A stretch of 64,000 nucleotides of DNA, the filler included, from Blastocystis sp. subtype 4 (taxonomy: Eukaryota), in NCBI RefSeq assembly GCF_000743755.1. It is 49 parts of 49 records of this genome, joined end to end, with 100 filler letters (N's around TTAATTAATTAA, not from the genome) between each part and the next. Parts side by side here need not be neighbours in the genome. Positions count along the whole stretch, not along the records: positions 3,956 to 5,209 come from NW_014568649.1; positions 5,310 to 6,519 come from NW_014568648.1; positions 6,620 to 7,818 come from NW_014568647.1; positions 7,919 to 9,126 come from NW_014568646.1; positions 9,227 to 10,432 come from NW_014568645.1; positions 10,533 to 11,761 come from NW_014568644.1; positions 11,862 to 13,074 come from NW_014568643.1; positions 13,175 to 14,404 come from NW_014568642.1; 41 more parts are not named here. The stretch is one strand, 5' to 3'. Within the stretch, counting starts at the first letter, position 1; each line of letters opens with the position of its first letter. A program made the translations under genes and the position numbers. Positions 3,856 through 64,000 of the stretch are shown here, in pieces. Under the pieces are notes generated by a model. The model searched no databases, was not told where the DNA came from, and saw only the letters and a list, made by a program, of their open reading frames with translations.

Positions 3856-3964
3856 NNNNNNNNNNNNNNNNNNNNNNNNNNNNNNNNNNNNNNNNNNNNT
3901 TAATTAATTAANNNNNNNNNNNNNNNNNNNNNNNNNNNNNNNNNNNNNNNNNNNNTTCATTATT

Positions 3965-4290
3965 TGTTGGAGTAGTTTTGGAGTAGGTTCAAAAATACAA
4001 CCTACTCCACATTTCATTCAAAAAGGCTCATTAAATGGCTTATTTATAGGGATTCATTCATTTTGGAGTAGGAGGAGTAGGAAGAGTAGGTTGAAATTTC
4101 AATTAGACAAATTGTTTTGGTAGAATTCTTCTTAAGAAATAGAAAACTAACCTACTCCACCTACTCCAACCTACTCCACATCAAAAATCTTCATAATCGC
4201 GCTTATTTATGGGCTATTCTACGGATTATTGGAGTAGGTTTGATATTTGAGACTACTCCTGAAACCTACTCCAACCTACTCCTATCAAAG
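3965..4290. repeat. Inverted iteron-like array GGAGTAG(G)/(C)CTACTCC
   Basis: About a dozen copies; a GGAGTAG cluster (4062-4092) faces a CCTACTCC cluster (4149-4179) across an AT-rich spacer. Confidence 0.85.
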
Positions 4291-4309
4291 TNTCTGCAAC
4301 AATCAATTC

Positions 4310-5014
4310 TCATCCATTAATCAATCGAATACCACCATTTCGACTACGTTTTCCTTTGTTAATGATTTGACTAACAATATCATTCTTCTTAACACTATCC
4401 AGTTCACGATGAATTGGATCAACACTTCCAGACTTCAATTCATCTGCATCTTGTTCCTTCACTTCTGGTTTTCCATTCTTATCATTTCGAGCTCGTTCAG
4501 CATTCTTCAATGATTTCTCATACTCTTCAACAATCCGTTTTCGTTCAAGATATTTGGCACGACGCTCTTCATCTAAAATACATGCAGGCAATTTGCTCTT
4601 CAATTTGGCTATTACTGTTGTCAGATTACTGAATGATAGATTGTTGTATGGAATTAGCATATCATCATCTACTATGTAAAATCGAGGAGGATCAGGATCT
4701 TCAACACATTCTTGAATATTGGATGGTGGAGCACGCTTGAGTTTCTTCCAAATGTCTTCTCGACCTATCAATGATTTGCTAATGAAGAGTTTCTCACAAT
4801 TATCAAGNAATTTGGAGTTCAATCGTATTGCAGATTGGAAACATGCAATCCAATTGATGAGTTTGTGTCGACCAGCTATACTACATTCTTCCATCAATTT
4901 GTATACAGGAGATTGAACTGATTTGTTCTGAAGATCATCAAAGATGAATACACTTCCATATGGTGATAGATACAATGATTTGATACTACCATCAGATACA
5001 ATTACTTGAAATGA
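4310..5014 (-). pseudogene. A32/FtsK-like viral DNA-packaging ATPase, C-terminal half
   Basis: Walker B VFIFDD, then IAGRH and a downstream conserved Q (WIACFQ); intron-less; no Walker A in contig; preceded by in-frame TAG at 5015-5017. Confidence 0.75.
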
Positions 5015-5200
5015 CTAACTATCTGGACTGGTTGTTTTTAGTGTTAATCCCTTAGTTGGTTGTAAGTCCTCACGTAGTTGATTGGAAAAGTTGAATATGT
5101 TGTGTGGATTAGCTGTTGATGGAGTTGATTCTCTAGGATCAGGTGGTTGATCAAAGTACTTACCATAATCAAGTTTGAATTGTGTGAGTAATTGACTCAT
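5015..5200 (-). CDS. Small viral-element ORF (MSQLLTQFKLDYGKYFDQ...), unknown function
   Basis: In frame with the ATPase; near-identical decayed copy at 63062-63118 directly after the protease-like ORF. Confidence 0.5.
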   Translation of the reverse strand: MSQLLTQFKLDYGKYFDQPPDPRESTPSTANPHNIFNFSNQLREDLQPTKGLTLKTTSPDS

Positions 5201-5309
5201 GTTTACTTGNNNNNNNNNNNNNNNNNNNNNNNNNNNNNNNNNNNNNNNNNNNNTTAATTAATTAANNNNNNNNNNNNNNNNNNNNNNNNNNNNNNNNNNN
5301 NNNNNNNNN

Positions 5310-6519
5310 GTGAGGAATTGAGTGTTGATTGATGACTAGATACACAGTGAATAATCGCAATACCTTGTTGAGTATTCCTTGGGATGTAACTGCACTGACT
5401 GTAACTGGGAATTCATGTAATGATAATAACATATATGTGGTTGATTTGAGTTCATTCAAGTTTCTTCGAAGTGTTGTGATTGGTCATTACTGTTTCAAGT
5501 ATGTTCAGATATTGTCGATAGTGGGACTCAATTGGCTTGAATCAGTCAGCATTGGCACTTACAGTTTTTGGAGTGATGGTTCATTATTGGTGGACAGTGA
5601 GTTCAAGATTGTGAATTGTCCACAACTGAAGAGTTTGAGTATTGGAGGTCGTTCGTTTGGTCGATACAATGGATTTGAATTGTCTCAGTTACCTCAACTG
5701 AAATCTATTATAGTAGCTAGTGATTTTAGTTTTCAATATGTTCCTAATGTGGTATTCAGAAGTATGAATGATGGAAGAGATGGATTGTAGACTTGCCATC
5801 ATTGGAGACTATTGATCTAGGAAATGGTGTTTTCAGAGATGCAGAATATGTAGTATTTGAAAGTATGTGATAATAGGAATTGAACATATCAGATCTTCCT
5901 AAGTTGACAGTGTTACGATTACGGTCAAGTTGCTTGGTTGGTTCGACTTCTACAAAGACAACTGATGTAATTCCCTATTACTATAAGAATACTCTTATCA
6001 TGAGGAGTATGTATGTTAACAGTTCTAAAGATCTACCATCTTTGAGGACACTAAGCATGACTGGTAGTTATGTGTTTGGGAATATGGGTTTTGTAAGGTT
6101 AGAAAGTATCACATTTGGAACTATCAAACAATAGATGTTCGATCACCTCTCATTATTGAAGGATCTAGTTCTAATCAATTCCAATACACTCACACTGTTG
6201 AAGTGAATAGTTGATGATTGTATTGTTGATTGATATGTAGATGCATCTAGTCTTGCTCAGTTCATATCATCCAGAAGTGTTTATGTGAAAGCAACAGGTG
6301 AAGTGATTGATCTCAGTTCAATTCCATTATCAGTTGAGGATCTGAGGTTTGAGGATTATTCTCAAGTGGATTCAACTGTTCTATCATTCAATCTGTCTCC
6401 ATTCTCTCATCTTAAATCCGTCACTATTGGAGATGATTCTTTTGGTTCACCAATTGAGTTCATAGCCAATGGACTGAATGAATTGATTTCAATTCATATT
6501 GGAATGAACTCATTCACAA
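5310..6519 (+). CDS. LRR protein fragment (family B), multi-exon
   Basis: Paralog of 1323..2540 with the same intron positions. Confidence 0.85.
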
Positions 6520-6619
6520 NNNNNNNNNNNNNNNNNNNNNNNNNNNNNNNNNNNNNNNNNNNNTTAATTAATTAANNNNNNNNNNNNNNNNNNNNNNNNN
6601 NNNNNNNNNNNNNNNNNNN

Positions 6620-7818
6620 GAGTGAATCGAATGTGTTGTCTGTTGAAGTCCATTTCACAGATTCAAATCATGAAGAGATCATTCAATTCAATGGATTCTT
6701 ATCTCTATTGGCTGGAATAAATGTAACCAACAATTGTTTCGTTTATCCTTATCCTGTTACTGCCTCTTCTACTGACTTCAATGATCCTAGTCGTGCTATT
6801 GATTGGGATTATTATTGGTATGCATCAACTTCTTGGTTTCCAAGTTCGATGATGTTTGATTTCTCTGGTTCTTCTATTCCACTCATCAATTCTTATCGAA
6901 TATGGACTTATAATGATCGTAACTATTATTCTCCTTCTTCATTCTCTATTGAGGGATCTGTATCAACTGATGACTCTTGGAACATGATTCTCTCTCCATC
7001 CAATATTGGTTACACATGGTATGAATGGAAACAGTTTGATCTTGTTTCTCTTCCTCACAGATATCCTCTTCTTCGATTCACTATTCTACCTTACAGTGAT
7101 GATAATGTTTGCTTATCAGAACTTCAATTTCTTGTTTGTAATCGTCCTTCTGTGAGTAGTATTGAGTATCCTGAAACAGAATACTCATTCTACAAGGATT
7201 ATGAACAGATCTCTATTAGTCCAATTCAATATGGATACAGTGATTGTTCGATTCAGCCTTCACTTCCTGATGGAATGAGTATTGATCCCAACACTTGTAT
7301 CATCTCTGGTGTATCTCATTCTCTCGGTTCACAACAGTATACTGTCACATCAACAATGGTCACTCCTCCCATTCAATCTATTCTCAATCTCACATTCATT
7401 CACTGTTCTGGAACTGTCTACAGAACTCAGATGATTATTCGTTATGAATATGATCAAATCACTATTCATGATACATCTGATGAGAGTATTATCTATCAGA
7501 TTCAACCAGGTCATTCTCAAGGATCATTTGGATTAGAAACTCATTATCTGTGTATCACTGCTGATCGATTTGATGTTGTGTTCAATTTGACAACTACCTA
7601 TTGGATGTCTAGTTCATATTATTACATGTATGTTCTGTTGCCTGATGGTGAAGAGGAGATGGTTCTGAAAGGACGATATGATGCTGATCAGAAGAATGTT
7701 CATCATCATTATGTTCGTTGTCCTTCTATCAATCATTCAGAACAATGGTATTATAAGATGGGTGAAGTGCCTACCAATTGGTTTGGTGATGATACATCAG
7801 GTTGGTCTCAAGCTGCTA
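6620..7818 (+). CDS. Surface-protein module C fragment (discoidin-like + putative Ig)
   Basis: SVEVHFTD...LPDGMSIDPNTCIISG...SEQWYYKMGEVPTNW; 6 paralogs in window. Confidence 0.85.
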
Positions 7819-7918
7819 NNNNNNNNNNNNNNNNNNNNNNNNNNNNNNNNNNNNNNNNNNNNTTAATTAATTAANNNNNNNNNNNNNNNNNNNNNNNNNN
7901 NNNNNNNNNNNNNNNNNN

Positions 7919-9126
7919 ATTCCAATCACTTGACACATCACTCTGTATCACCTTCCAATCTGTGTATTCAATCTGGAAAGGGAAATACGTTGAGAACACA
8001 GTTGATACAGTCACAGGTGAATAATCCTGACCATTCATTTCCATGATATCCAACTCCATCTCTCCATAATCAACAGTCAGAGTGTAACCACTTCCATTAG
8101 ACCAGCCATCTCCCCATGAATCAGCTCCTTCAAATGTGTAGATTCCATCATTCAAACAGAAATCAACATAGTAGTAAGCATTCGATACAGGGAATACGTA
8201 TACAGATCTCAACACGGTTCCTGAGGTTCCTCTTCCTTCATACAGTTTCCATGAATTCTCAGAATCACTGGCATCAGCTCTGATACGAACAGTCATCAAT
8301 CCTCTCCCTCCAGTACAGCGAGTAACAGCAAGAGATACAGGAACAGTCACATCTCCTCCACTAATCTTAGTAGCAGTGATGGTGTAGGTTTGAGCAGCAC
8401 TCTCAGAAGTGGCAGTACCTGAAATCCAACCAGTATAAGGATACACAATACCAGCAGGAAGAGAAGGATTGATTCTGAAGTTGTAGTAACCTTCTGTATT
8501 CTCAGGAATCACTTCAGCCATCTCAATATCCTTGAATATAGTGATTGAAGAATCATAAGTGAAGTTAGGAATATCAGCCAACACATTATCAGCAAACAGA
8601 TCCAGAGATTGAGTCAACCACGTACAATCAGAAGGATTACCAGTAGCAAAGTTCTCAAACTTGAATTGATTGTAAGGAGTATTGTTAGACAAATAGACTT
8701 TTCTCTTCTGAGCCACAGTTGAATAAGTAAGACCAGTAACATCGGCTAGAAGTGTCCATTCATCATTATTTGAGTTACGACCATACAATTTGAATTGTGT
8801 GGGAACCTGACTACTGTACATTGTCGAATAATAGTTCTGAATCTGAACAGAACTGATCCATTCACGACGATTGTTTGATAGAGTCAAAGTCAGAGAATTC
8901 GGCTCACAGTCATAACCAGAGATGTAGGTATTACATATCAAATGGATTGGAACCAGGAGCATAGATACCAGTCACTGAAGCAGTGAATTCCCAGATATGA
9001 GATTCAGATTGTTCTGAAGACATCAAACGAACAACTGTATCGAAATAGGATGTGGTGTAACTGTCAGCAATAGCAACAATCGCAATAGCAATCGTGTTAC
9101 TTCCAGATTGAAGGAATGTCACTGGA
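7919..9126 (-). pseudogene. Module A copy with frameshift near 8935
   Basis: Homology split over ORFs 8931..9122 and 7871..8962; also a 3-nt deletion (GIVYPYTGW). Confidence 0.7.
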
Positions 9127-9226
9127 NNNNNNNNNNNNNNNNNNNNNNNNNNNNNNNNNNNNNNNNNNNNTTAATTAATTAANNNNNNNNNNNNNNNNNN
9201 NNNNNNNNNNNNNNNNNNNNNNNNNN

Positions 9227-10432
9227 TTCAACAGTAACCACTCCAGTGACATTCCTTCAATCTGGAAGTAACACGATTGCTATTGCCATTGTTGCTATTG
9301 ATGATACTCAACTCACATCCTATTTTGATACAATGGTTCGTTTGATGTCATCAGAACAATCTGAATCTCATATCTGGGAATTCACTGCTACATCTAATGG
9401 AATCTCTTGTTCAGGAGACACATTAAGTGATATCTCTTCGAGTGGCTGTTCCAATACCAATTCTCTCACCATCACATTGAATAATGATCGTTGTGAGTGG
9501 ATCAGTTCTGTTCAGATTCAGATTCCTTATTACTCCAGTAGAGACCGATGGGTAACTGAATTCAATCTGTATGGTCGTAACTCAGATACAGATGAATGGA
9601 CACTTCTGAAGGAAGTGACTGGTCTCACTTATTCAACTGCTGGTCAGAAGAGAAGAATCTATTTGGCTAACAATACTCCTTACAATCAATTCAAGTTTGA
9701 GAACTTTGCTACTGGTAATCCTTCTTCTTGTTATTGGGAAGTTCAGTCTCTGGATCTGTTTGCTGATAATGTGTTGGCTGATATTCCTAACTTCACTTAT
9801 GATTCTTCAATCACTGTAGTCAAGTATGTTGAGATGTCTGAAGTGATTCCTCAGAATGGAGATGGTTACATGAACTTCAGAATCAATCCTTCTCTTCCTG
9901 CTGGCATTGTGTTGGATCCTCACACTGGTTGGATCTCAGGTACTGCCACTTCTGAGAGTGCTACTCAAACCTACACCATCACTGCTACTAAGATAACTGG
10001 AGGAGATGTGACTGCTACTATCTCTCTATCAGTTATCATATGTACTGGAGGCAAGGGATTGATGACTATTCGTATCTATCCTGATTATGATCATGAAGAG
10101 AATTCATGGAAACTGTATGAAGGAAGAGGAACATCAGGAACTGTTTTGAGATCTGTAGAACAATTCCCTGTATCAAGTGATTATTACTATGTTGATTTCT
10201 GTTTGAATGATGGAATATACACATTTGAAGGAGCTAATTCATATGGAGATGGATGGTATTACCATACTGGTTACACTCTGACTGTTGATTTGGGAGAAAT
10301 GGAGTTGGATATCATGGAAATGAGCAGACAGGATTACAAACCGATCTATGTATCAACTGTGTTCTCAACATATTTCCCTTTCCAGATTGAATACACAGAT
10401 TGGAAGGTGATACAGAGTGATGTGTCAAGTGA
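9227..10432 (+). CDS. Surface-protein module A fragment
   Basis: Open paralog. Confidence 0.85.
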
Positions 10433-10532
10433 NNNNNNNNNNNNNNNNNNNNNNNNNNNNNNNNNNNNNNNNNNNNTTAATTAATTAANNNNNNNNNNNN
10501 NNNNNNNNNNNNNNNNNNNNNNNNNNNNNNNN

Positions 10533-10885: not shown

Positions 10886-11150
10886 GATTCATTTACAATA
10901 ATAAACAATGAGAAACAAAAGGGGAATTAGTTATAACCGTGGTTCTGTACATACTATGTAGTTCCATGGGAATAATAGGCGGTAACGCCATCAGAAAAAA
11001 CTTCAAATAGATTCGGCAAACATTACAATGATTCTTGCTTGCATATTGATTGAGGGATCTATAGTAGAGGAATGGTGACTACTGACCATATCTGAATAGA
11101 ATCATCACTGCTCACTGATCAAACCATTAGTAGTTGAAAAGGATAGTATA

Positions 11151-11158: not shown

Positions 11159-11162
11159 ATAG

Positions 11163-11861: not shown

Positions 11862-11975
11862 CTCAAACCAACCTACCCTACTCAATCCAACCTACATTAA
11901 GCAACCACTGTCCCCTCTACTAACATTAATCAACTAGTATCTTTACCCCTTAATCCCCTTTTAACATTAATCAAT
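11862..11975. repeat. C-rich, possibly subtelomeric repeat shared with 26655-26700
   Basis: ACATTAATCAACTAGTATCTTTACCCCTTAATCCCCTT identical in two contigs, both near the contig start. Confidence 0.6.
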
Positions 11976-12089
11976 CCAATACTCTCTTCAATACCAAATG
12001 TGAATCTGTTATGTTTGATAAACGATACTATTCTCTGGCTCACATCATTCAATATCCAATGCTGATTCCAGTTATGCTTGTATTTACAT

Positions 12090-13174: not shown

Positions 13175-13595
13175 TACTGAGAGATTCATCATTCATAATG
13201 GGAACAGAGAATTCAAGTTGAATATGAACTGCTTGACGATAACATGGTCTTGTATTCTCATACCATTTGGATTGATAGAGAAGGGAATAGTTGCCATGTG
13301 TCCGACTGTGATAATCTTGAAGATGATATGCATTGAGAAAGACAGTAATGAGAAGAGAATCATTGTTGTAACTGCCATAGATATCAATGAGATGAGGTTC
13401 ATTCTTCAAATCAGAGAGAGTCATCAAGTAACTCGTTGGATCTTTGCATGAGAATCTTTTAGACAACGAAATAAAACTCACTACAGGATCGATTGATCTC
13501 TTTTCAACTCCTGCATAATAATAGAAGGTCTAGAATAATGAAGATACAGAGATAGGATTACAATACATAATACAAAGAGTAGTATCAACCTCATG
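13175..13595 (-). pseudogene. Type II membrane protein (glycosyltransferase-like?), disrupted
   Basis: MRLILLFVLCIVILSLYL signal anchor followed by frame disruption. Confidence 0.35.
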
Positions 13596-14154
13596 TTAAA
13601 ATATGCACAATAAACAATACCATTTCGACCTAATTATGGCATGTTTCTTTACTCATGATTATCAACAATGATAAAGAATAAGTACAATCCATTTTGATTG
13701 TGCAAATTGTGATTACCTATTGATATCATCATATTTGAAAGCACTGATATGATTTGTATACAGTGGATAATTCTAGCTGCTTTTTACTATTGTGTTTATT
13801 CTATTCTTAATCATTATCTGCTTCAACAATTGCAGACGAAGAAAATGTGAGAATGATTAGTTCCATTATCGATTACGAACACTATTCTTCATTTACACTG
13901 TCACCAGGAATCAGTGAATACTGAGATGAATACATCATTTCAATGATATATTGAAATCAATCTGTGTACCCTAATACCGTTACTACCGTTTATATTAACA
14001 AAAATGGTCTAATGCGAATGATATTGTATATTAATTCTGCTATAGAATCTTGTACAACAATCTGGTCCCTCCGAAATGAAAAGATACTCTATCATCAAAC
14101 ATTTTGCAACTCACTATCTGCAACTATAACCATCACCTTAAATACCGAATACTT

Positions 14155-14404
14155 GTGATGTAGATGTCTGAAGCGATTGATACTACTTCATCATGACGAT
14201 CACGCACATCAAACTGAAACGAATGCAAATCACTCATACAAACTCACTCCTGGCATGTTCAAATGACTAAACAAACACACATTGTTCAATCCCATTGTTG
14301 AATAAATCATACAATCCACTAATGGACTTGTTTCAAATGATATCATTTGCTTTACCAGATTACTGTAGATTCGAATACAATTCAATCCATTTGATACATC
14401 TACT
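14155..14404 (-). pseudogene. Penton/minor-capsid-like C-terminal fragment
   Basis: VDVSNGLNCIRIYSNLVK aligns with IDITTGCQTLNVYSSIIK of 24090..25018; after a frameshift FQFDVRDRHDEVVSIASDIYI; DNA near-identical to 55326-55387. Confidence 0.6.
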
Positions 14405-14504: not shown

Positions 14505-15701
14505 GTATGTGTTCCAAGTGGAATCATCGAAACTGACAGTATTCCAATCACTTGACACATCACTCTGTATCACCTTCCAATCTGTGTATTCAATCTGGAA
14601 TGGAAGAAATGTTGAGAACACAGTTGATACATAGATCGGTTTCGTTCCACTGTTCATTTCCATGATATCCAACTCCATCTCTCCCAAATCAACAGTCAGA
14701 GTGTAACCAGATCCTATACTCCATCCATCTCCATATGAATCAGATCCTTCAAATGTGTAGATTCCATCATTCAAACAGAAATCAACATAGTAATAAGCAC
14801 TTGATACAGGGAACTCGCTTACAGATCTCAAAACAGTTCCTGAGGTTCCTCTTCCTTCATACAGTTTCCATGAATTCTCAGCCGGAGAACTATCAGCTCT
14901 GAAACGAACAGTCATCAGACTCTTGCCATCTGTACAAATTGTAACTGATAGAGAGATAGTATCAGTCACATCTCCTCCACTTATCTTAGTAGCAGTGATG
15001 GTGTAGGTTTGAGCAGGACTCTCAGAAGTGGCAGTACCTGAAATCCAACCAGTATAAGGATCCAACACAATACCAGTAGGAAGAGAAGGATTGATTCTGA
15101 AGTTGAAATAACCATCATTATTCTGAGGAATCATTTCAGACATCTCAATATCCTTGAAAATAGTGATTGAAGAATCATAAGTGAAGTTAGGAATATCAAC
15201 CAACACATTATCAGCAAACAGATCCAGAGATTGAACTCTCCAAGCACAAGCAGAAGGATTACCAGTACCAAAGTTCTCAAACTTGAATTGATTGTAAGGA
15301 GTATTGTTAGAGAAGTAGATTCTTCTCTTCTGACCAGGAGTTGAATAAGTGAGACCAGTGACTTCCTTCAGAAGTGTCCATTCATCTGTATCTGAGTTAC
15401 GACCATACAGATTGAATTGAGTTGTCTCCTGGCCAATATATGATGCTGAAGAGTAATAGTTCTGAATCTGAACAGAACTGATCCATTCACGACGATTGTT
15501 TGATAGAGTCACAATCAAAGAATTGGAAGTACAGAATGAATAATAGATAGTTGTTCCATAATACATATCAAATGGATCAGTGGCTCCAATCATTCCAGTA
15601 GATGAAGCAGTGAATTCCCAGATATGAGATTCAGATTGTTCTGATGACATCAAACGAACAACTGCATCGAAATAGGATGTGGTGTAACTGTCAGTAATAG
15701 C
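14505..15701 (-). CDS. Surface-protein module A fragment
   Basis: Open paralog. Confidence 0.85.
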
Positions 15702-20976: not shown

Positions 20977-21344
20977 GTATCTACTGTAAGTTCAGTCTCT
21001 AACCATTCACCTTTAGCATTGTACACATTAACACCATGAACACCATCTTCTGCAAATGGTACTTTTGTTGTTGAACTAATGTTTAACTTGTGTTCACAAT
21101 TGCCTTGCATTGTGTTTAACCAACGATTAAACTCTTGTTCCCTATCTTTGCAATATAGAAGCAGGATATCTAATGGATCAGCATTCCTGGCGAATTGTTT
21201 GTTGTCAAGAAAACCAATATCAACACCCATCTGTTCCAACTTCAAGATCTTGGTGATCTTCCTCATATCATATTTGTAGGTCTTGAATATGTTCTGATAT
21301 TTGGGATTGTTTGCAAGCTCTTCAAATTTGTTAATTGTTTCCAT
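20977..21344 (-). CDS. Intron-less hypothetical protein of virus-like contig
   Basis: ATG-initiated ORF, co-oriented with the KilA-N ORF, open to contig edge. Confidence 0.55.
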
Positions 21345-21454
21345 CTTAATTAATGATATTTGAAAGAGATATTATTATGACTTTTATCTAATTAGTTTAG
21401 CTTCTTAATCAACCATTTATTATCGCCTCCATATTACAAGGCGTTAAATATTGA

Positions 21455-21838
21455 TTATTCTTTATCAACTGCAAGAGCAACATGAATACGATAAGGATCT
21501 GTGATTTGTAGGGAATGTTGATATCCATCTTTCCATACTGAAGGACCTAAACTTACACTACATACACAATTTGATTCAGGTAATGTGATAATGTAGTGAT
21601 AACTATTGGAATATGTAAAAGGAGCATATGTAGAGTCAATTACTCGTTGTCCACTACGCAGAATCATATGATAAAGCACAGGATCTTGTATGAAAACATC
21701 ATCAAGTAGTCCTAGATCATTTGTGCAATTTGGTAGTTCTAAATCCTTGTAATAATGTTCTTTCAAGTTGTTCAAATGATATTCCAACAATTCGGATAAA
21801 CATTTATTCAGTTGACCAGGGCATTCTTTACTGTACAA
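21455..21838 (-). CDS. Intron-less hypothetical protein of virus-like contig
   Basis: 127-aa ORF between KilA-N and the next ORF; start uncertain. Confidence 0.45.
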   Translation of the reverse strand: MYSKECPGQLNKCLSELLEYHLNNLKEHYYKDLELPNCTNDLGLLDDVFIQDPVLYHMILRSGQRVIDSTYAPFTYSNSYHYIITLPESNCVCSVSLGPSVWKDGYQHSLQITDPYRIHVALAVDKE

Positions 21839-21879
21839 AGTAAAAGAACAACATCATTTGTAATAGGTAAAGCTTTAAG

Positions 21880-22701
21880 TATTATGGCTCTTCATCAATA
21901 TCACAACGCCAACACAAATCATTACGTACTTGTTTAAGAGCCATTCTGATACTATAATCAAAATCTGAATCATTATCATCCCAATTACAAATAGGAATAA
22001 CAAACTCTGAACGTTGTGTACCCATAGCATGTATAGCGTTCAACAATCTCCTTTACACGATCAAATGCATTGTATCTGAATGTGTATCCATTAGGAAGAT
22101 TCTTAACGTAGTAGATTCTATTCTTTTGATTTACATAGTTTCGAAGTTTCTTACGATTATAGCTGGACATTAGATGTACAAAATGATCATCTCTTTTGAC
22201 AATCTTCAAAACATATGTCCATTGCTGCTCTTTTGTATCTTCAATGTAACGATTCTTGTATATGGCAGTTTCTGCTAAGGCAGTCTTAAGACCATCCTGT
22301 AATGTTTCGATTTGATGATTCTTATCATTTAGTACACGAACCATCATATCATTATCCACAGCACGAAGATTGGTCAAGAATGTTAGCACTTTGTTGGCAA
22401 ATACACGATCAGCCCACATCAAACAATCAATTAGTAGTTGTTCACAAACAACATATCTATTGTTATGTCCTCTTGATACATTCGAAATGATAACATACTG
22501 GATGACATGAGGAATATCCCATAATACTGCTTTATCATCAGCGTTTTCAACTGTAGTACGTTCACGGCTCGAATCCGAGCCGTGATTGTTGCTGTGCAAC
22601 TTTTGATCTACGACCAAATCATCTACGTTTTCAACCGTGTTACATTGATGGCTCGGATCCGAGCCATCAGTATCATTTGGCCAATTCATGAGTAATTCCT
22701 T
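21880..22701 (-). pseudogene. KilA-N domain protein with coiled coil, probable 3' frameshift near 22025
   Basis: RGHNNRYVVCEQLLIDCLMWADRVFANKV resembles the KilA-N GTYVH..L...A.W.SP.FA.KV end motif; an alternative frame continues GTQRSEFVIPICNW...EEP*. Confidence 0.65.
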
Positions 22702-24089: not shown

Positions 24090-25018
24090 GATTTGAGCAC
24101 CATCAATAACAACAATCTGAGTGGATGTGATATTGTGTATTTTGGCATCTGCAAGAAGAGATAATCGAGTGATATAACTGTTGTTAGGTAGTTGAATATC
24201 ATTATTGAAATTGATTGTAGTATGTGGATTGTTAATAGGAATGGTGATGTTTGTGATATTGATGAGATTGAGTTGAATGGCATCTTCAATTGTATCTGTT
24301 TTGATATGTGTTTGAATAGTGGATATATTGATGTATACATTGAGAATAGCATTGAAATTGACCTTTTGATTGGTTTCTACAGATGTGAGAATGAAATCAA
24401 CGAAGTCTGATGAACTGGTATGAATACATTGGTGAAGTGTTGTGTGTTTGGTTTTGTTAGGTCCTTGATAGAGAAAGAACATAGTAGATTGTTAGCAGAA
24501 TGAGATACAGATTGAGGTGCTGATTTGATGATTGAGCTGTAGACATTGAGTGTTTGACAACCAGTTGTGATATCGATGATTCCATCTGAAACATATGTGC
24601 CTTTAGAATAGAATTGTTTGAATTTGAAGACTTTGATGAGGTCAGGAGCTTGTATGTTTCTGTTAGTGGTGAGTTTGGCTTTACCGAAGTTGTTTCCTTT
24701 GATGATGATGTCTAGAGTGACATTGTAGAGTGCTAGTGAATTGTTGATTTGAGCAGATAATTGATCAATAGTGTATGCACCATTAGGAATAGGAATTGAT
24801 GTGTAATCACTGGTTGAACCTCCAAGAGATTGAACAAGGATTGTATTGCCTGTATTGATGTTTTGAAATATGGGTAATCCATCTGTTAGTGGTTGTAGAG
24901 TGATAGTGATATCTGTGATGAATGAATTGTTTGGAAAGTTGTAGACTTTGTCTAAATGAATCTTACTGTCTTTGATTGTTTGTTGTCCTTGAAGTACAAA
25001 GTTGTTGATGACTTTCAT
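24090..25018 (-). pseudogene. Penton/minor capsid protein-like (Polinton/virophage type), frameshift near 24415, second jelly-roll-like repeat starting
   Basis: IPIPNGAYTIDQLSAQIN and LNVYSSII..NLLCSFSI motifs; beta-rich, I/N/T-rich, intron-less; internal repeat FPNNSFITDITI / LPNNSYITRLSL. Confidence 0.65.
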
Positions 25019-25038
25019 TTTTATTACAAAGTAAGAAA

Positions 25039-25274
25039 ATGCAAGAAGGAAATAGTCCTTCATTCAATCGACAGATAACAGCAATGTACAAAGGAGTTCA
25101 TGTAAATCCATATACAAACAAAGTGACATCTCATGTGAGTAAGAACACAAAGAATTTCATCGAATCTGCAATCAGTAAGAATCATCAAATCAACTTCACA
25201 CACAACAAATTGTGTGAAGAGGATATTCAACGATTGAAAAGGGAATTGTTTGAGTTGAATATTCCTTGTGAAGA
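25039..25274 (+). CDS. Hypothetical ORF divergent from the penton-like gene
   Basis: ATG ORF open to contig edge, intron-less. Confidence 0.4.
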
Positions 25275-50533: not shown

Positions 50534-50729
<196 letters not shown>

Positions 50730-50874
50730 TGAGATGTCATGTCATTTCTATATGTTGAGAATGACGAATACTCTCTTTGATTATTGACACTATGTTAGAT
50801 TAGTGAATCATGATGGATCGTGTAATGGGATTGTACCACTTATGAAAATTGAGTCATTTAAATATATAAGGAGT

Positions 50875-50962
50875 TCGTATGAGTGATTTGTATTCGGTTC
50901 AGTCTAACTGTATGAGATTGTGGTGGTGAGGTAATGTCAATTACTTCTGACATCTACATTCT
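50875..50962 (+). pseudogene. Decayed penton-like 3' remnant
   Basis: GTATGAGTGATTTGTATTCGGTTCAGT...TCTGACATCTACAT matches the reverse complement of 14157-14240. Confidence 0.6.
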
Positions 50963-54250: not shown

Positions 54251-54300
54251 ATCGAAGGCAGCCTTCGCCTTCGGCTCGGCTACCTTCTTGCCTTGAACTA
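54251..54300. repeat. GC-rich hairpin/palindrome arm
   Basis: CGAAGGC-A-GCCTTCG; the following arm is the reverse complement of 62122-62150. Confidence 0.6.
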
Positions 54301-54420: not shown

Positions 54421-54884
54421 ATGTCACATTGGGTTGATCTTGTAGTCGATAGGTTGATGGAAATTGATGAAAACGCATTCATGCAAAGAATGGATTTATC
54501 AGATACAAAGATTCTAAGACAGCAGCTTGTATTAAATCACGATTGAGATATGGACAAACGGAAAGATCATTGGTTCTCACAGATGGAAAAGTGAAAACTC
54601 TTTCTCATGTCATTGCTGAACAGTTCTTGCAGAAATACAAGAATCCTGATTCAAAATATGTTGCTATTCTCAATGGTGACAGAACTGATTTGCATCTTAC
54701 CAATCTCTGCTGGTGTAATGCACATCAACTGAATATGATTAAGAAGATAGGACCTAGAATCACCAAATACACTGATGGACATCAACTTTACTTCCTTGAT
54801 CATCTAGGCAAACTCACTTACAAACAACTATTCAACCTTATTAATGTGATCAAAATGTGGGATGAAGAAGAACAGAATGCTTAA
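54421..54884 (+). pseudogene. HNH (NUMOD4/HNH_3-like) endonuclease, degenerate, frameshift near 54480
   Basis: LSHVIAEQFL..NPDSKYVAILNGDRTDLHLTNLCW; catalytic H/N not conserved; intron-less. Confidence 0.65.
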
Positions 54885-54949
54885 AATGCATACTAATTCA
54901 CTTTGGCATTGTTCATATAACTGAATAGAAAACGGAATAAAAGGAGTGA

Positions 54950-55185
54950 TTAGTGTAGTAGTGTAGTAGCCTCCAAAATAATTGATACAAAGTAATTCTA
55001 CAAAAAGTCTTTTGCAAAATTGAAAAACAGGCTACTACACCTACTACACCTTCATAAATAAGTCAGTTAAACCCTCATAAATTAAAGAATATCCCCATAA
55101 ACAAGCCAGTTTATGGGCTTTTTAGTGTGGTAGCCTACTTTTTTGTAACCTACTACACTACCTACTACACCCTACCAAACCTATC
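54950..55185. repeat. Inverted iteron-like array GTGTAGTAG/CTACTACAC
   Basis: Paired repeats face each other across an AT-rich spacer; same layout as 3965-4290. Confidence 0.85.
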
Positions 55186-55293
55186 AAACAAAGTGAATAA
55201 TCAGTTACTCTGCAGTTGCTATGCAACTCGTTTAACATGTTGAACTGTTAATCTATGATTAAATACAGCTTTACCTAAAGGATAAAAGCTTGA

Positions 55294-55387
55294 TCAAACC
55301 TTTCCGTTCACACTCAAACGGATGTTGATGTAGATGTCTGAAGCGATTGATACTACTTCACCATGACGATCACGCACATCAAACTGA
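55294..55387 (-). CDS. Penton-like gene 3' end
   Basis: QFDVRDRHGEVVSIASDIYINIRLSVNGKV*; near-identical to 14157-14217. Confidence 0.6.
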
Positions 55388-56724: not shown

Positions 56725-57861
56725 GAACACATTCTTCAATTCCTTCAGAACAATGGATACATAGAATTGGATTCTTATCACTTAATCGAGGAGGAAAACC
56801 TAAGACTCGACGATGATATTTCATTTCACAATCACCAAACACATAACTGACTTCATTCTTCTCTGATTGTTTCAGTGATAATGGAGCTTCTTCTTTGGAG
56901 ATGAATGTCTATGTGATAAGAATCCAGATATAAGTACTGATTCTCTGAAACCATGATTGATGGATTGAAGAATAGAGGCAAAACAACCATCCAACTCTCG
57001 ATTACAGAGAGTACAATATCCCTTTCCAATGGAACATGGAATTGGAGGGATAATAAGAGTTCGATCTAGTTGATTGGCAATCTGAACTAGAAGAGTTAAT
57101 TGTATTCGTATATCTGTTTCATTGAAGGGAAGACTCTCTGCAGTCAAATAGAGATGATCTTCAGAATCCTTCTCTTTTCTTCTTCTATATCCCAGTTCAA
57201 GCATTCTCAACTCTTTACAGATAGATCCTCTAACATAGTTGTTATGCATCATGAAGATAGAAGGAGATACTTCATCCCAAGAGTATTGATGACTAATCCA
57301 CTACAGAACTGTTGGTTGGGAAGGAGATAGGGTTTAAGATTATGTTTGTGATACACTTTCATCATTGAGTGTTGATCACCTCCTCTTGTGATGTTGATAA
57401 CATTGAGAGCTTGATCAAAGAGAGAGATTGAAAATGGATTTGATTTGGCAAAGAAGAATCCAGTACATAGAGTTGTATCTTGTTGAAAGACAATAGATTG
57501 TGTTTTCATGAAGATATGGAATTGGATTCTTGAAGAGAATAATATCAGAATCAGAATAAAGAACATTGAGATGGTTATTGAGGAGATATCGAATAACAGA
57601 AAACTTGAAGAGTGAGATGAGATAGAATGAAGATGATCCTTGATTGATGAAGTCAAGAGGCTTTTGATTCTGTTGTTGAGAAAACAAGGCAACAGGAATC
57701 TGATGATGAGTGAAGAACTGTGAATGAATGAAAAGAGAAATCCTCACATCATAGGACAATGAATCATGAACAACAACAAAGAAGGATGAATAGTTCTGAA
57801 GACTGTTGGATCGATAGAAGTCAAGAGTGAATTCTCGATATCCATAGGTGGCAACTGTGAT
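56725..57861 (-). pseudogene. Nucleotide-diphospho-sugar transferase (GT77-like), apparent frameshifts
   Basis: NVLYSDSDIILFKNP (DxD), LCTGFFF, DQ, HNNY motifs spread over three frames. Confidence 0.75.
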
Positions 57862-57961
57862 NNNNNNNNNNNNNNNNNNNNNNNNNNNNNNNNNNNNNNN
57901 NNNNNTTAATTAATTAANNNNNNNNNNNNNNNNNNNNNNNNNNNNNNNNNNNNNNNNNNNN

Positions 57962-58435
57962 CTCGAGATAATGATAGATACTTCGATACTTGAACATAGG
58001 AACAACCAAAGCATGTTTCAATGAAACTCGACTATTCTATCAATCATTATGTTGATTCAACTGTACTGGGAGAGTGGATACAAGAAACTTAGAGAATCTT
58101 CGATTTAGTATTTGTGGTGATGAACAGATGTACTTCTTATGAAAGACACATATTTCATTCTCTTTCAAAGAAGCTGATCCTTCATTGATATAGTAGTATT
58201 CTTGAGGTAAAGAATAAAGGAAATAAGAAGTATCACAACTGCCATTTGTCTGATGTTGATAGAAGCTTACATAATCCTCATAGAATTCATGAAATTGATT
58301 CCATTCTAATCTATCTGTTCTTCGAATAGACAATGGAATATTATACCTTATTGAATATGAAGAAAGGCGGGATTGTTGAGAGAGAAGGAATAGAACAAAG
58401 ATAAAGAGAGAATATGAGAATATGTACAACATAGA
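57962..58435 (-). CDS. Hypothetical type II membrane protein, 5' part
   Basis: MLYIFSYSLFIFVLFLL anchor; ORF 58040..58456. Confidence 0.4.
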
Positions 58436-59198
58436 ATATACTATATGAACTCTCAATATCCAATACTGCTAGTAATGGTTGTATTCACATTGATTCCAAT
58501 TGTTCAATGTGAATGAAGAACAAGAGATTGTGATTAATGGAAACAGAACAGAATACTGTTTGAACAATCCTAACAAGTTGATATTGACATTGAAGAATTG
58601 ATATGAATGATGAATTGTAGTGATGTTTGAATTGATGTACAGTAGTGAGAATGTCTTCTGAATATCAGTGAATGGCTTCAATACACTCGATTTCTCCTAT
58701 CTGTATCTGATTTCTCAAAAACAAATATCAACAATGACACTATCATCTTCATCAGTTCATCACAATCCTTAGCTTCTACACCCTTCTTCTCGTTCAATCG
58801 CTTTCATCTGTCTCACATTCAAATGTTCAAACTTATTAAACTTGTTGTTAATCACTCACCAATTTGACTTGAAATGGTAGAGTGATCCTTCCATCTTCTT
58901 GCCATTTCCCTCTATAGCTACCCAGAGTTGGAGGCCCATGTCGGTGACGGTTGTGTCTGCTTCCAATTTGTATATGACATACAACAAAACCACGCCATAT
59001 TCTTGATAGGTGTGATAAACAGAAATAGAGTATTGATAAGAGTATAGATGTAATAAGAATATGAGAATGAAATAAGAATAGATGATGATTGAATGATANN
59101 NNNNNNNNNNNNNNNNNNNNNNNNNNNNNNNNNNNNNNNNNNTTAATTAATTAANNNNNNNNNNNNNNNNNNNNNNNNNNNNNNNNNNNNNNNNNNNN

Positions 59199-60334
59199 AC
59201 CGGTCTCTCGATAATCAGCAATTCATCCTTTTCCACAGGTTTACAGCATAACATACTCGAATACTCCGAAATCGGCTTCACATCCATATCTAAAAATCAA
59301 AACCATCATTCTCACTCACCAATCCATTCATTCAAACACTTTACCTTCTTCTTCACATCTCTCGTTCTATGCATCAACTTCACATCTCATTTCAACAGTT
59401 GGATTCGTTTCATAACATTCTTCATTCCTCTCAAATACATCTCCTCATTCTCTGTCTTCGCCTCCTGTTTCTCTCCTTCTACACAACACTTCAACAGAAG
59501 CATCTGATCCTTGGTAGCCACACCCACAATCCGTCTCTCTGGCATCACAAACACACTCATTAACACATTCACACTACGAGCCAAATTGTAAGGAATAAGC
59601 CAAGTGATGAGATTCCATTCCTGATTAGTACAATGTCTGTCAAGGTCCCAACTAGAATGAGAGGAGAAGAGAAAGAGTACGCGATGAGAGAGTTATCAGA
59701 GAGAGAAGCAATGAGAGTATGAGTAGAAGGGACATCTGGATGACAAGTGGAATGAGCTGTGAGATGGAATGGATCCGAAGTATGAAGAATATAGAGAGAT
59801 GTGATGGAATGAGAAGGAGATGGAAGAAGTGTGGAATGAATGGCATCATTCTTCATATCCATTTGAACATGAAGAAGCCCTCGATTCATCGTTGTCACTA
59901 CGACCTGGATCGATTCATTGGCTACATTCACTTGATCCATCAAGACAGAAGTCACAGGCCACTGGATCTCTTCTGAGAGATCATGATAAATGCTTCCATT
60001 GATCTCCTCTTCACCATCAGATGAATAGACAGAAACAGAACCAGTAGCAGTCATTCCCACAATACACACTTCATCACCCATCTCCACCAAATGTGCTGAT
60101 ATCCAGGTTCCTGAAGACAATTCTGAAGGTAATTCCACAGACTCACACTAGCAATGACCTCTCATCAAAGACATTACACTCAGAGTTGTCTCATCAAATC
60201 GGAATAGTTTCACTCCCAGCATATCTCGAATCAGTAACAGACATGAATCATTCTGTTCCAACAGAGATACAGAAGCCACATTCCTCCCTCCTTGTATGTT
60301 CAATCCTATTTTCACATTCCTCATCTTTCTCTCT
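59199..60334 (-). CDS. Hypothetical (possibly beta-propeller) protein fragment, multi-exon
   Basis: Long exons separated by ~30-nt introns; no family recognised. Confidence 0.5.
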
Positions 60335-60434
60335 NNNNNNNNNNNNNNNNNNNNNNNNNNNNNNNNNNNNNNNNNNNNTTAATTAATTAANNNNNNNNNN
60401 NNNNNNNNNNNNNNNNNNNNNNNNNNNNNNNNNN

Positions 60435-61290
60435 AAGATGATGTTGTTATTGATGTTAATGATGATATGAGAATGAAATGGATTGATGATTGTGAATTGA
60501 TTGTTACTAGTTGTGTTGAATCTCTGATTATTGGTTATGATTTCAATCGACCTGATATATCATCATTGATATTGAACTATTCATTGATATCGTTGAAACG
60601 AATTGAGATTGGAAATGATTGTTTTAAGAAAGTGAATCAATTTGTGATTGATGGATTGAATAAACTGGAGACTATCATCATTGGATGGTGGTGTTTCTCT
60701 CTCAATAATGGTCCTATAGAAGGAAGCAAATGTTTGATAATGAATTGTGATCAATTGAGACAAATTCACATTGGTAAGTATTCATTCATGTATTATGAAT
60801 CACTTGAATTGAAGAATCTTCCTTCTCTGATATCCATTCAATTGGGCTGGTATGTATTCAGTTGTTGTCATTCAATAGTATTTGAGAGTATGAATGATTG
60901 AATGACTGATGAATGAGATCTGATTCGACTTCAATCCATCACTCTTGGATCACAGACTCTATGTGGTGATGGTAGTACTGTTGAAAGGAATGAGTTAGTA
61001 ATGAAGAGTATGAATGATGCTGATGATTGATTGATCAGATCTTCCTTCTCTATCTCGAATTGATGGCATTGTCAATTTCAGTAGGATAGGTAAAGTAATA
61101 TTGGATAGTAATGATTGATGATAGAATATGACTTAGACATTCCATTACTCACTGAAGATGGAATAAAGTTGGATGATTCATTCAATAATGTGTGGCAGTT
61201 GAATAGTACTAGTATGGTTGATTGATCAATAATGATTGAGATGCTGGATCTCTTCATCAGTTCATTCGACAAAGTAGAAATGTACTAAAG
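60435..61290 (+). CDS. LRR protein 3' part (family D), multi-exon
   Basis: FVIDGLNKLETIIIG, LKNLPSLISIQLG; paralog of 47545..49192. Confidence 0.75.
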
Positions 61291-61670
61291 AAAGAGAGTA
61301 GTCCACAAGAATCAGATCCTTCTGATCTTTAACCTATCATTCATTTCAATAAAAGGTTATCAGCTAGTTGTGTAATATACTAAGATATTGATTGTATTTG
61401 TTGAGAATGAATGAAACAATCTGTTCATTCATTCTTGAATCATGGATACTGAGTGATTCATATCATATCATTTCATTGTTCATAATGGAAGAAGAGAGGA
61501 TTGAATGATGAAAACAATGAGAATTGTGATGATGGATACGATTATAAATGGATTAAAGAGATTGATGAGGNNNNNNNNNNNNNNNNNNNNNNNNNNNNNN
61601 NNNNNNNNNNNNNNTTAATTAATTAANNNNNNNNNNNNNNNNNNNNNNNNNNNNNNNNNNNNNNNNNNNN

Positions 61671-61796
61671 TGAATCTGAATTTGGTGTTAATAGTACTTT
61701 GATCATAGTAATGTATGGATTGTTGAAACGATAAGGATTCTCCCATGTGAATGATCCATTTGATGGTTTGCCTTGAATGATTATTGAGTAATGCAT
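61671..61796 (-). CDS. Penton-like gene 5' end
   Basis: MHYSIIIQGKPSNGSFTWENPYRFNNPYITMIKVLLTP aligns with NFVLQG...KVYNFPNNSFITDITITLQP of 24090..25018. Confidence 0.55.
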
Positions 61797-62174
61797 TTAT
61801 TGCTAGAAAGAATTAACGACAACATTCTTGTTCTTATTGTTGCCCATGATTTGAGTTGAAATGGGTTGGATATGTGTTCCAAATTATGATCAATATGCTG
61901 CCTTTTCGAGCTTGTTTATGGGCCTTTTTGTCTGCATTTTCGTGGCGTTTTTGTCTGTTACCCTCTTCTCTGTATAGCTACCCAGGATTGGAGGCCTATG
62001 TTTGCGACGGTTTGTCTGGATAATAACAATACGTAACATACGTCAAAACACTACTACTTATGTTTTACTCTGTTCACACTAATTTGACCATTTACTTAAC
62101 CGTCACTCAACTTTTTTTCTCAGTTCAGGCAAGAACGTAGTCGAGCCGAAGAAATCATATGGCCTCAGGATGTT

Positions 62175-62318
62175 GTTATCAGATGCAAAGACTCTTATGA
62201 AACAACTATAATTAGATCACGTTTGAAATATGGAAACATATATAAAACATTGGTACTCACAAATGGGAAACGAAAACGCTACCCATGTGATTACTGAACA
62301 GTTCTAACAGAAACAAAA
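62175..62318 (+). pseudogene. Decayed second copy of the HNH-like gene
   Basis: DNA homologous to 54497-54640 with indels and stops. Confidence 0.7.
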
Positions 62319-62337
62319 GTAGATGGATGAAGTTGAA

Positions 62338-62800
62338 TCAAATCTCACTCATTATCAACTCAGTTCCTTCTCCTTCTCGAACAAATCCTTTCATCATATC
62401 TCCTTTAAACCCTCCTTCATATACTCTCATTCCATTCACATCATATTCAATCATTACTTCTTTCCATTCTCTCAATACTCTCGTCATTACTCCTTTCTTG
62501 TATTCACATTCTCTAATCAATCTTCCTCCTTCATACTCAAAACACTTACCATTCTTTCTCCATTCATCATCATATTCACTCACACTCAACAAATTTCCAT
62601 TTTCATTCATCTCTTTGAAGAATCCTTTCATTCCTTTATGCTTTGTCAATATCGAATACCGCTTTCCAATTCGATACAATCCTCTCCATATCTCATTTCC
62701 ACCATCGTAAGTAACCTTTAATCCATTCTTATCAATAACATCATTATGCTTCTTCATCGATTCCTCGATTATCTTCTCGATCTCTTTTTCCAAGGTGTCA
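62338..62800 (-). CDS. MORN-like repeat protein fragment (family D), truncated
   Basis: MIEYDVNGMRVYEGGF shared with the ORF at 47550. Confidence 0.65.
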
Positions 62801-62901
62801 NNNNNNNNNNNNNNNNNNNNNNNNNNNNNNNNNNNNNNNNNNNNTTAATTAATTAANNNNNNNNNNNNNNNNNNNNNNNNNNNNNNNNNNNNNNNNNNNN
62901 A

Positions 62902-63051
62902 GCTCATAATGCTGTTCAAAATCCTTCAACAAGTAACTGTGGATATCTGGCATTGTTGTATGCCCTCACTCATAACAAGTTGAGACCCATAGATAGGAAC
63001 AATAATCACTGTTCTTCGTTTCTGTATACAGGCAGTATGTTCTTTCTTTGA
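62902..63051 (+). CDS. Adenain-like (Polinton PRO) cysteine protease, C-terminal part
   Basis: NAVQNPSTSNCGYLALLYAL matches the Q-x5-CG catalytic-Cys motif; followed at once by a copy of the ORF preceding the ATPase. Confidence 0.55.
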   Translation, partial: AHNAVQNPSTSNCGYLALLYALTHNKLRPIDRNNNHCSSFLYTGSMFFL

Positions 63052-63061
63052 AGAAGTAAAC

Positions 63062-63118
63062 ATGAGTCAACTACTCACATAATTCAAGCTTGATTATGGT
63101 AAGTACTTTGATCAGCTA
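63062..63118 (+). pseudogene. Decayed copy of ORF 5015..5200
   Basis: ATGAGTCAACTACTCACATAATTCAAGCTTGATTATGGTAAGTACTTTGATCA near-identical to the reverse complement of 5148-5200, with CAA>TAA. Confidence 0.8.
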
Positions 63119-64000
63119 TATGATTATGATATGATAAGTATTAGTTTGAAAGTATACGTGATAGTGCAACAGATTACTCAATAGAGAGGAATCAGGGAAG
63201 AGCACACAAATCTCTGAAATATACATGAAGATTCAGAACATAAGTAGTTGAATGCGAAGACTTGGCGCTGTTAGAACACGCGATTAGCTATTTGAATGAT
63301 TGAGTGGGACACTTGTTAACGATATGTAATGAACAGCTCATATGTGATGCTTTCGATATAGTTTGATGTATGATCATGAAGGCGAATCAGTGGCAATAAC
63401 TACTAACTCCACATTAACATTTTGTAGAGTACGAATGGGAAGGTGGAACCAACTGATCATTCACTTTGAGCATAGTAGCTGAATGTTTTACGTATTGATA
63501 ACTGTTAAAAAGAAGGGGGCATATTACTTATAGCCTTCTGATGTTGCGGCGACAATAGTAAGAGTTAGGGCGGTTATATCCTACTGTCTAGCGATTATGT
63601 ATTGCATGATTTAAAGAAGCAACAATACTTCTCAAAATCTATTATTATCGACTCCTAGGACCATTTGTTGACACTTGTAACTCTAACTAATTATCCTGTT
63701 TGTTCTTCATACAGTACCAACCAAATAAGTACATACATTACTGACACCTTTTGCTGTTGTTGAACCCTTTCTGCTGTATCGTCCTCCGCATTTATCATTC
63801 AGTTATCTAGTATATAATTTGTGAATACTTCAATCATACATTATGTCGGTGGAACGGATGTACACAGAGCTCCCTCTCAAATCCAATGGCCTTGATAGTA
63901 CTGCTCTTATCGAAATCAGGCTTCTTGTGAGACTGAGGAACAGTAGTGTATGTTACCTCAGTCTGTTCCAATCGCAGTACCTTCCAGTGAGGATACTCAG

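Follow-up and report, generated by a model that had tools for sequence, protein, structure and literature searches.

Scattered among the short contigs of a draft genome of Blastocystis sp. subtype 4 (ST4; assembly GCF_000743755.1) are fragments of virus-like genes, and the question that they raise is what kind of virus left them, and whether it belongs to Blastocystis at all. The window, by which we mean the whole stretch of 64,000 nucleotides (nt; filler included) that was analysed, comprises about 50 contigs, each short (1.1-1.7 kb), with spacers of N between them. An endogenous DNA virus of Blastocystis ST4, polinton-type, is in our view the probable source of the fragments, which would be its broken copies. 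Its intact relatives carry an rve integrase, a protein-primed DNA polymerase B (pPolB) and a predicted double jelly-roll (DJR) capsid protein, and it likely inserts by means of the integrase and is copied by protein priming; relics of a second lineage accompany the fragments. The original prediction, made from the window alone, had described a single virus family of Polinton-like or virophage type.

Intact relatives and integrated copies

Used as a query, the ATPase fragment of the window recovered seven loci (L001-L007; 203 candidate stretches scanned) that are 94-99% identical to it. These loci come from mixed metagenomes; L003 is 14 kb in length. L001-L003 contain compact open genes, among them those for a 434-amino-acid (aa) P-loop ATPase, a 335-aa integrase, a KilA-N protein, pPolB and proteins of 400 and 1124 aa, and a 227-aa small penton-like gene is found in L005. 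The window contigs beginning at 3956, 24090 and 20977 are 96-98% identical to the loci, and the 227-aa gene is matched at 96-100% identity by the pieces at 14156 and 55289. The contig at 20977-22701, which bears KilA-N and was thought to be unlinked, is in fact 96.4% identical to L003 over 1738 nt and is therefore part of the virus family. As had been said, the window holds no major capsid protein (MCP), pPolB or integrase; these genes are found in the metagenome relatives instead.

The integrase of L003 (4539-5546) matches Pfam rve above the cut-off (E 1e-9) and has its D, D and E motifs at 50, 121 and 153, while another open reading frame (ORF) of this locus matches Pfam KilA-N, also above the cut-off (E 1.8e-8). 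The pPolB gene (L003 12651-14084) matches DNA_pol_B_2 (E 4e-13; 49 bits vs a cut-off of 25.8), its ORF running off the available DNA. The match begins at residue 261, corresponding to profile position 186 of 468, and the motif spacing leaves little room, so that the polymerase seems, from its sequence, to be short of most of the exonuclease domain. Its N-terminus is presumably vOTU-like, with Ser replacing the catalytic Cys, and its motif B has Thr in what we take to be the usual place of Tyr. No helicase was seen in L001-L003; exonuclease loss is linked to helicase gain in the pertinent section of PMC11161782.

The 400-aa protein is predicted from its modelled fold to be a DJR MCP. The model, built from 3 sequences, has a predicted local distance difference test score (pLDDT) of 50. 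Its match to PRD1 P3 in a Foldseek search of PDB (E 9e-10) was accompanied in VIA-align by mavirus (Z 9.2), PBCV-1 (9.0) and faustovirus (8.9), with a root-mean-square deviation of ~6 and ~280 aligned residues, and every top Foldseek match and the nine top VIA-align matches are DJR capsid or scaffold proteins. The best match in BFVD is a protein of MELD virus sp. (A0A8S5L5M3; E 4e-19, 19% identity), and the ESM features of the 400-aa protein fall in clusters resembling NCLDV capsids (NCLDV, nucleocytoplasmic large DNA viruses). Pfam returned no family for it apart from one unrelated match (E 0.04), and no polinton capsid profile.

The viral proteins of the window family have identical or nearly identical counterparts in Blastocystis sp. 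BT1, an axenic ST4 strain with a Nanopore assembly (PMC10690189, in the part that describes it). BT1 members of the same 90% clusters are located on single contigs of 484,869, 571,055, 816,354 and 923,562 bp. On the 571-kb contig the locus tags are 001059 (integrase), 001061 (a 175-aa ORF), 001067 (fibre-like), 001070 (ATPase), 001080 (integrase) and 001082 (MCP); judging by its offset, tag 1062 would belong to another, identical MCP accession. The 90%-identity clusters have 53-256 members, and full-length open ORFs recur in them for the integrase, MCP, ATPase and long penton. Virus and non-viral DNA also share a contig four times in the window (13175, 50534, 57962, 61671) and in two of the loci: in L005 an inverted repeat is followed by a GBP GTPase gene (Pfam E 2e-25), and in L004 two truncated viral pieces flank non-viral DNA. 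In their non-viral parts, L004 and L005 match window contigs at 100% over 72 and 99 nt, L005 doing so at 62702-62800. Because of these junctions and the BT1 copies on contigs of 485-924 kb, the virus is integrated and multi-copy. The presence of both intact and decayed copies on large axenic ST4 contigs ties the virus group to Blastocystis. The BT1 viral proteins are annotated as hypothetical, and the main text of PMC10690189 uses the word integrase zero times, virus once and viral once.

The window ATPase gave 0 of 192 candidates in a set of 5.8 billion proteins and nothing in the genome contig set; the viral contig set returned nothing with the penton, the ATPase, pPolB, the protein P0002, the MCP alignment or the repeat pattern as queries; and tblastn against phages found nothing, one search giving just weak RecA/terminase matches (E 0.1 or worse). 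The window proteins by themselves have no informative profile match except for a weak HNH. Among the 24 sequencing runs listed, 15 contain at least half of the words of 24090-25274, including mouse and rat gut metagenomes, and none exceeds 0.86; three RNA-type runs have 0.29-0.36 of these words, which we do not take as evidence of expression.

Side by side, L002 (5733-6305, 8292-10811) and L003 (9714-12183) differ in the accessory genes between KilA, MCP and pPolB; the differences, an extra 190-aa ORF and C- and N-terminal halves that are swapped, suggest that modules have been exchanged.

Fragments, lineages and repeats

The viral features of the window are as follows; lineage A is the main lineage, that of the intact relatives, and lineage B resembles MELD virus sp.

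3956-4288, minus strand: ~330-bp palindromic repeat of GGAGTAGG-type motifs, lineage A, candidate terminal inverted or module-boundary repeat; copies in L001-L006
4310-4996, minus strand: C-terminal half (aa ~208-434) of a P-loop ATPase, likely genome-packaging, with Walker B and without the Walker A half; 98% to the 434-aa ORF of L001-L006
4995-5209, minus strand: start of a gene (function not assigned) that elsewhere follows the protease, here joined mid-ATPase; 95% to 63054-63114
14154-14404, minus strand: aa ~137-218, from the 3' part of the small penton-like gene (227 aa), frameshifted, adjoining non-viral 13175-14153; 95.6% to L005, 4-nt insertion
20977-22701, minus strand: 3' part of the KilA-N gene and two downstream lineage A ORFs, small indels; 96.4% to L003 6577-8272
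24090-25018, minus strand: codons 1 to ~315 of the tandem penton-like gene (1124 aa), with 7-nt and 9-nt deletions relative to the intact gene; 98.4% to L001/L003/L004/L006
25039-25274, plus strand: ATPase N-terminus, divergent from the long penton-like gene; translation is the start of the 434-aa ORF
50810-50960, plus strand: decayed small penton-like relic within a non-viral contig; 76% DNA identity to L005, stops and a frameshift
54471-54884, plus strand: ORF resembling an HNH endonuclease, in convergent orientation to the small penton-like gene; phrog_959 HNH E 6e-5, Pfam HNH_3 E 0.04
54940-55190, minus strand: palindromic repeat of a variant (GTAGTAG-type) form, located between the HNH ORF and the small penton gene
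55297-55387, minus strand: final stretch (30 codons) of the small penton-like gene; 100% to L005
58494-58694, plus strand: decayed relic of a lineage B long penton, with stops; 37% over 73 aa to P0295 (E 3e-6), hidden Markov model E 7.5e-6
61683-61796, minus strand: beginning of a lineage B gene for a long penton-like protein, cut off by the contig end; P0295, which is DAD57286.1, is 74% identical to it over 39 aa (E 2e-12)
62150-62318, plus strand: second HNH copy, broken, adjoining the host-type gene 62319-62800; 75% to 54496-54641
62901-63048, plus strand: C-terminal 49 codons of a putative cysteine protease, by its Q-x5-CG motif alone
63054-63114, plus strand: start of the gene after the protease, with an early stop; 95% to 5148-5208

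The ORFs were found where the original prediction had placed them, and all three of its DNA cross-links are real (blastn E 4e-16 to 3e-25; best E 1e-4 in 20 shuffles of the contigs). They join 5148-5208 with 63054-63114 (95%, E 5e-22); 14156-14217 with 55326-55387 (98%, E 3e-25) and 14158-14296 with 50824-50959 (73%, E about 5e-16); and 54496-54641 with 62176-62319 (75%, E 7e-20). Its list of seven contigs comprised real pieces and missed the relic at 58494-58694 as well as the ATPase N-terminus that also lies on contig 24090-25274. The last of the seven, 62901-63425, is viral up to near 63114; 63115-63425 was dropped, as tblastx and tblastn gave no signal beyond ~63114. In the window copies there are deletions of 1-12 nt, one 4-nt insertion and one 42-nt insertion.

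The motifs that we read in the 434-aa ATPase are Walker A (117), Walker B (222), R (249) and Q (260). Contig 3956-5209 had been assigned a packaging ATPase; what stands is half of a P-loop ATPase by homology and motif, with the Walker A half missing and no Pox_A32 match. The join at ~4995 is, we infer, a deletion junction; in X6 and X8, two of the sequencing runs, loose ends go on into the sequence of 4995-5209. L007 is ~91% identical in DNA over the ATPase, and its 239-aa core is 97% identical in protein, a conservation of protein above DNA that fits purifying selection. The Q-x5-CG motif of the protease fragment is presumably adenain-like. Summed contig depth in run X6 is 83-103 over 62901-63011 vs 4.5-8.4 over the non-viral flank 63160-63899, depth not being the same as copy number. 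Ahead of both HNH copies there is a short GC-richer segment (54251-54300 and 62110-62150), in opposite orientation relative to them.

A profile search with the penton-like proteins yielded 20 relatives, mostly of ~1000-1140 aa. Sub-region profiles divide the 1124-aa protein into one complete module (aa 1 to ~235) and a second module split by ~650 residues, and the 227-aa protein is a single-module paralogue of it (profile E 5e-12). The cluster of one relative includes DAD57286.1, named 'putative penton capsid protein [MELD virus sp.]', and ESM look-alikes were found at 0.96-0.98, one of their clusters being 18% Adeno_Penton_B, a recognition below the tool's mark. The penton identity is thus putative, drawn from the MELD annotation, the ESM look-alikes and gene context. 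A sister clade (P0002, P0047-P0060, P0109, P0113, P0117) is 33% identical in the long penton and 54-56% in the small one; it occurs on many contigs of 26-33 kb from ENA, Logan and JGI, with no named eukaryote record among the members listed, and these contigs are candidates for whole or free genomes. In one metagenome protein, P0127, a bacterial-type adenylate kinase is joined to the C-terminus of the small penton, probably as an assembly chimera.

Judged by sequence, the window pieces come from at least two lineages, A and the MELD-virus-sp.-like B. The long penton of lineage A is 26-28% identical to that of MELD virus sp., and in a tree built on first modules from 24 rows (19 long proteins, each trimmed to 240 aa, plus 5 small pentons; the short pieces from the window were left out) lineage A and the MELD virus sp. 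cluster occupy separate supported branches. A single family was accordingly rejected: the penton start on contig 61671 is 74% identical to MELD virus sp., as against 26% for the long penton of the main lineage, which lies on another branch. On the contig of the relic at 58494, 58906-58959 is 83% identical to 61966-62018. The lineages mix, because the HNH copies beside each are 75% identical and in L002 a truncated lineage A penton is fused to a piece resembling 62004-62062. Of the idea of one repeatedly integrated and variably decayed family, then, repeated integration, decay and copies inside host contigs hold, and the word 'one' does not. At 11963-12049 there is also a weak match to a lineage B penton (48% over 29 aa, E 2e-5), possibly a further relic.

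The 330-bp repeat folds far better than 100 dinucleotide shuffles (z = -8.9). Its place in L001-L006, as in the window, is after the ATPase; next comes the small penton gene in L001 and L005 (the window copy has the same flank) and the integrase in L002 and L003. In L005 an inverted copy follows the small penton and adjoins host DNA, and the repeat is also located inside the element. Given the order in BT1, it is most simply a terminal repeat with one internal copy, in which case the ATPase-repeat-integrase junction would be a product of tandem or circular recombination. Alternatively, the repeat might be a separate foldback element with a preference for a viral intergenic motif, or the result of an assembly mis-join. 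Within L005 (2232-3663) the small penton-like gene lies between two inverted 330-bp copies that are 93.5% identical, and the resulting 1.4-kb unit may represent a mini-element of non-autonomous kind or a cassette able to invert. In 19 kb of element DNA (L001, L003) the motif ATTCACTTTG was counted 8 times vs 0.18 expected, and the window has it at 54896, 55189-55198 and 63459; it often lies just past stop codons and directly before the palindromic repeat, and is a possible viral transcription signal.

Most other window contigs belong to large gene families with putative immunoglobulin (Ig) or leucine-rich repeats. An expanded host family of putative Ig-domain surface-type proteins occupies 2641-3855, 9227-10432, 14505-15701 and ~15 other contigs (He_PIG E 5e-9 in the one member scanned), and a leucine-rich-repeat-type family is also present. 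The motif TGTTTGTT, which we presume to be one of Blastocystis, is not clearly enriched (10 vs 4.3 expected, maximum 12) and was not used for host identity.

Weighing the explanations

For the polinton-type virus we propose the following course. Insertion would likely be carried out by the rve integrase, as in polinton biology (PMC11161782, in the part on these elements), and replication would likely be protein-primed from the palindromic ends. The ATPase would package the DNA into a DJR capsid with penton-like proteins, matured by the protease. From the BT1 tags and L001/L003, the order would be repeat, integrase, small ORFs, KilA-N, MCP, pPolB, (protease), fibre-like, long penton-like, ATPase, repeat, small penton-like, inverted repeat. 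Copies would multiply through fresh insertions as well as through recombination at the 330-bp repeat, the latter giving the ATPase-repeat-integrase junctions of L002 and L003, and would then decay through deletion. Some copies may still be active.

Several results weigh against this account. Two concern its extent: no single record analysed spans the whole element, and the small indels of the window may be decay or assembly errors. At the repeat, no target-site duplication, which in polintons is 6 bp, was seen at the flanks, L007 has no repeat after the ATPase, and the L002/L003 junctions across it could be short-read mis-joins. Others concern the morphogenetic module of ATPase, penton and adenain, whose members are recognised by motifs or homology, with no profile or fold match for any of the three. 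The ATPase has no match to an A32/FtsK profile, Pfam giving just DEAD/ResIII below the cut-off; hhalign of it against four tectivirus P9 proteins covered 16 columns at a probability of 12%, and the ATPase and pPolB gave no useful alignment with PRD1 proteins. A single-sequence AlphaFold model of the penton module had a pLDDT of 31 and was left unused, so that a penton fold was not obtained, and penton profiles found no relative among PDB sequences. The protease fragment (49 aa) has no match in Pfam, PHROGs, NCBIfam or PDB; a protease was not found in L001-L007, and its tie to lineage A is the 4995 junction only.

The same DNA might instead belong to a helper-dependent, mavirus-like provirus, integrated by rve, forming particles only on co-infection by a giant virus and perhaps protecting the host population. 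We regard this as improbable. Mavirus MCP does come first in VIA-align, within Z 1 of PBCV-1 and faustovirus, and mavirus also combines rve with a pPolB that bears only an exonuclease remnant (PMC11161782, in its treatment of the polymerase), the pPolB here seeming similarly short; virophage-polinton hybrids are moreover described from human gut and rumen in the part of PMC6905037 on them. The MCP, however, has no Pfam family match beyond the unrelated one at E 0.04, measures 400 aa vs ~500-610 aa for the virophage MCPs among the fold matches listed, and is matched best in BFVD by a protein of a MELD virus, which outscores virophage MCPs by ten orders of magnitude; L001-L003 have no visible helicase, and the part of a preprint that deals with gut egoviruses reports no gene flux between them and Blastocystis (bioRxiv 2024.03.23.586382). 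A dead element, in which one or a few old insertions were passively multiplied by segmental duplication of repeat-rich host regions and are now inactive, would suit the truncated, frameshifted or fused state of most window copies, the recurrence of the same host gene families beside viral pieces in the window and in L004/L005, and the two truncated pieces around non-viral DNA in L004. Full-length open ORFs recurring in clusters of 53-256 members, and the conservation of the L007 ATPase, which fits purifying selection, make it decidedly improbable to us.

Co-assembly of a free virus, or of one from some other gut organism, with the Blastocystis genome would account for the window contigs that are entirely viral and for the mixed metagenome origin of L001-L007, and a 2026 review, in its passage on the matter, regards the origin of the published Blastocystis virus as unclear (PMC12835684). 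The joins of virus to non-viral DNA in the window and L004/L005, the decayed relics and the copies on axenic long-read contigs of 485-924 kb largely refute it, and we give it very little credence. Far more tentatively than the polinton-type virus itself, and with doubt prevailing, we can picture Blastocystis, the commonest human-gut eukaryote, as the home of a still-active polintovirus radiation, with particles built from the divergent 400-aa capsid and giant tandem penton, free genomes of 26-33 kb in gut metagenomes (the P0002/P0113 clade), modules reshuffled via the 330-bp repeat and a polymerase short of its proofreading domain, possibly the source of some virus-like particles seen by electron microscopy in the 1990s.

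Comparison with known systems

Viruses of this general kind were already known, since a Blastocystis virus with PolB and integrase was described in 2021: Starrett et al. (PMC8502044) report, in the part concerned, Blastocystis MELD viruses whose virion proteins were recognised only by HHpred, and one is named 'Blastocystis MELD virus 3996' in the relevant part of bioRxiv 10.1101/2022.05.25.493380. The likeness to our element, compared by description only, lies in the host genus, PolB plus integrase and virion proteins that are not recognisable by sequence. Chromosomal integration, copy number, termini and KilA are not shown in the part of PMC8502044 describing that virus, and one of its supplementary files lacks the word Blastocystis. 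The MELD name is absent among the up to 40 members listed per lineage A cluster. MELD virus sp. (TaxID 2834287; DAD57286.1/A0A8S5L5B1 and A0A8S5L5M3, two UniProt entries that we infer from the shared organism name to be of one genome) supplies both a homologous ~1000-aa penton-like protein and the best MCP fold match; lineage A is distant from it (penton 26-28%, MCP 19%) and lineage B close (74% over 39 aa).

In the literature searched, which was that outside subscription papers, we found no description of integrated copies in Blastocystis. The January 2026 review also mentions, in the part at issue, unexplained virus-like particles in Blastocystis (PMC12835684). Our findings support the earlier, doubted report of Blastocystis as host of such viruses, and the question is testable in a culture-collection strain, a ready experimental system. 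A 2023 protist-wide capsid survey screened 10 Blastocystis assemblies and, in part of its supplement, names them only in the input table, so that the capsid family may be missed by current profiles.

The 'Polinton-like/virophage-type' label was right as to a preplasmiviricot and can be narrowed to polinton-type, a typical polinton-like virus (PLV) being set aside. Strict PLVs are mostly without pPolB and rve integrase (RVE-INT) according to the section of PMC11161782 on them, and that assignment was rejected for L003, which has both; the intact relatives are polinton-type rather than typical PLVs because they encode both. With mavirus they share rve and pPolB, with rumen virophages pPolB and a gut habitat, and the penton-like protein is divergent (PMC6905037, PMC9952930 and PMC11161782, in their parts on these viruses); unlike virophages (Maveriviricetes), they have a shorter MCP without a match to a virophage Pfam profile. 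Like polintons/Mavericks (Polintoviricetes, including those of Trichomonas), they have pPolB, RVE-INT, a predicted DJR MCP, a likely packaging ATPase, a putative protease and a putative minor capsid protein (PMC11161782, same part), and unlike them they show no capsid profile match, two penton-like genes (one a 1124-aa tandem), a pPolB likely short of the exonuclease and no visible target-site duplication. KilA is shared with parabasalid polintons, to which it is stated to be apparently restricted in the part of bioRxiv 2024.03.23.586382 that treats it; its presence in a stramenopile polinton departs from that statement. Chromosomal integration, KilA outside parabasalid polintons and the 330-bp palindromic repeat, of candidate terminal type, are the additions to the known kind.

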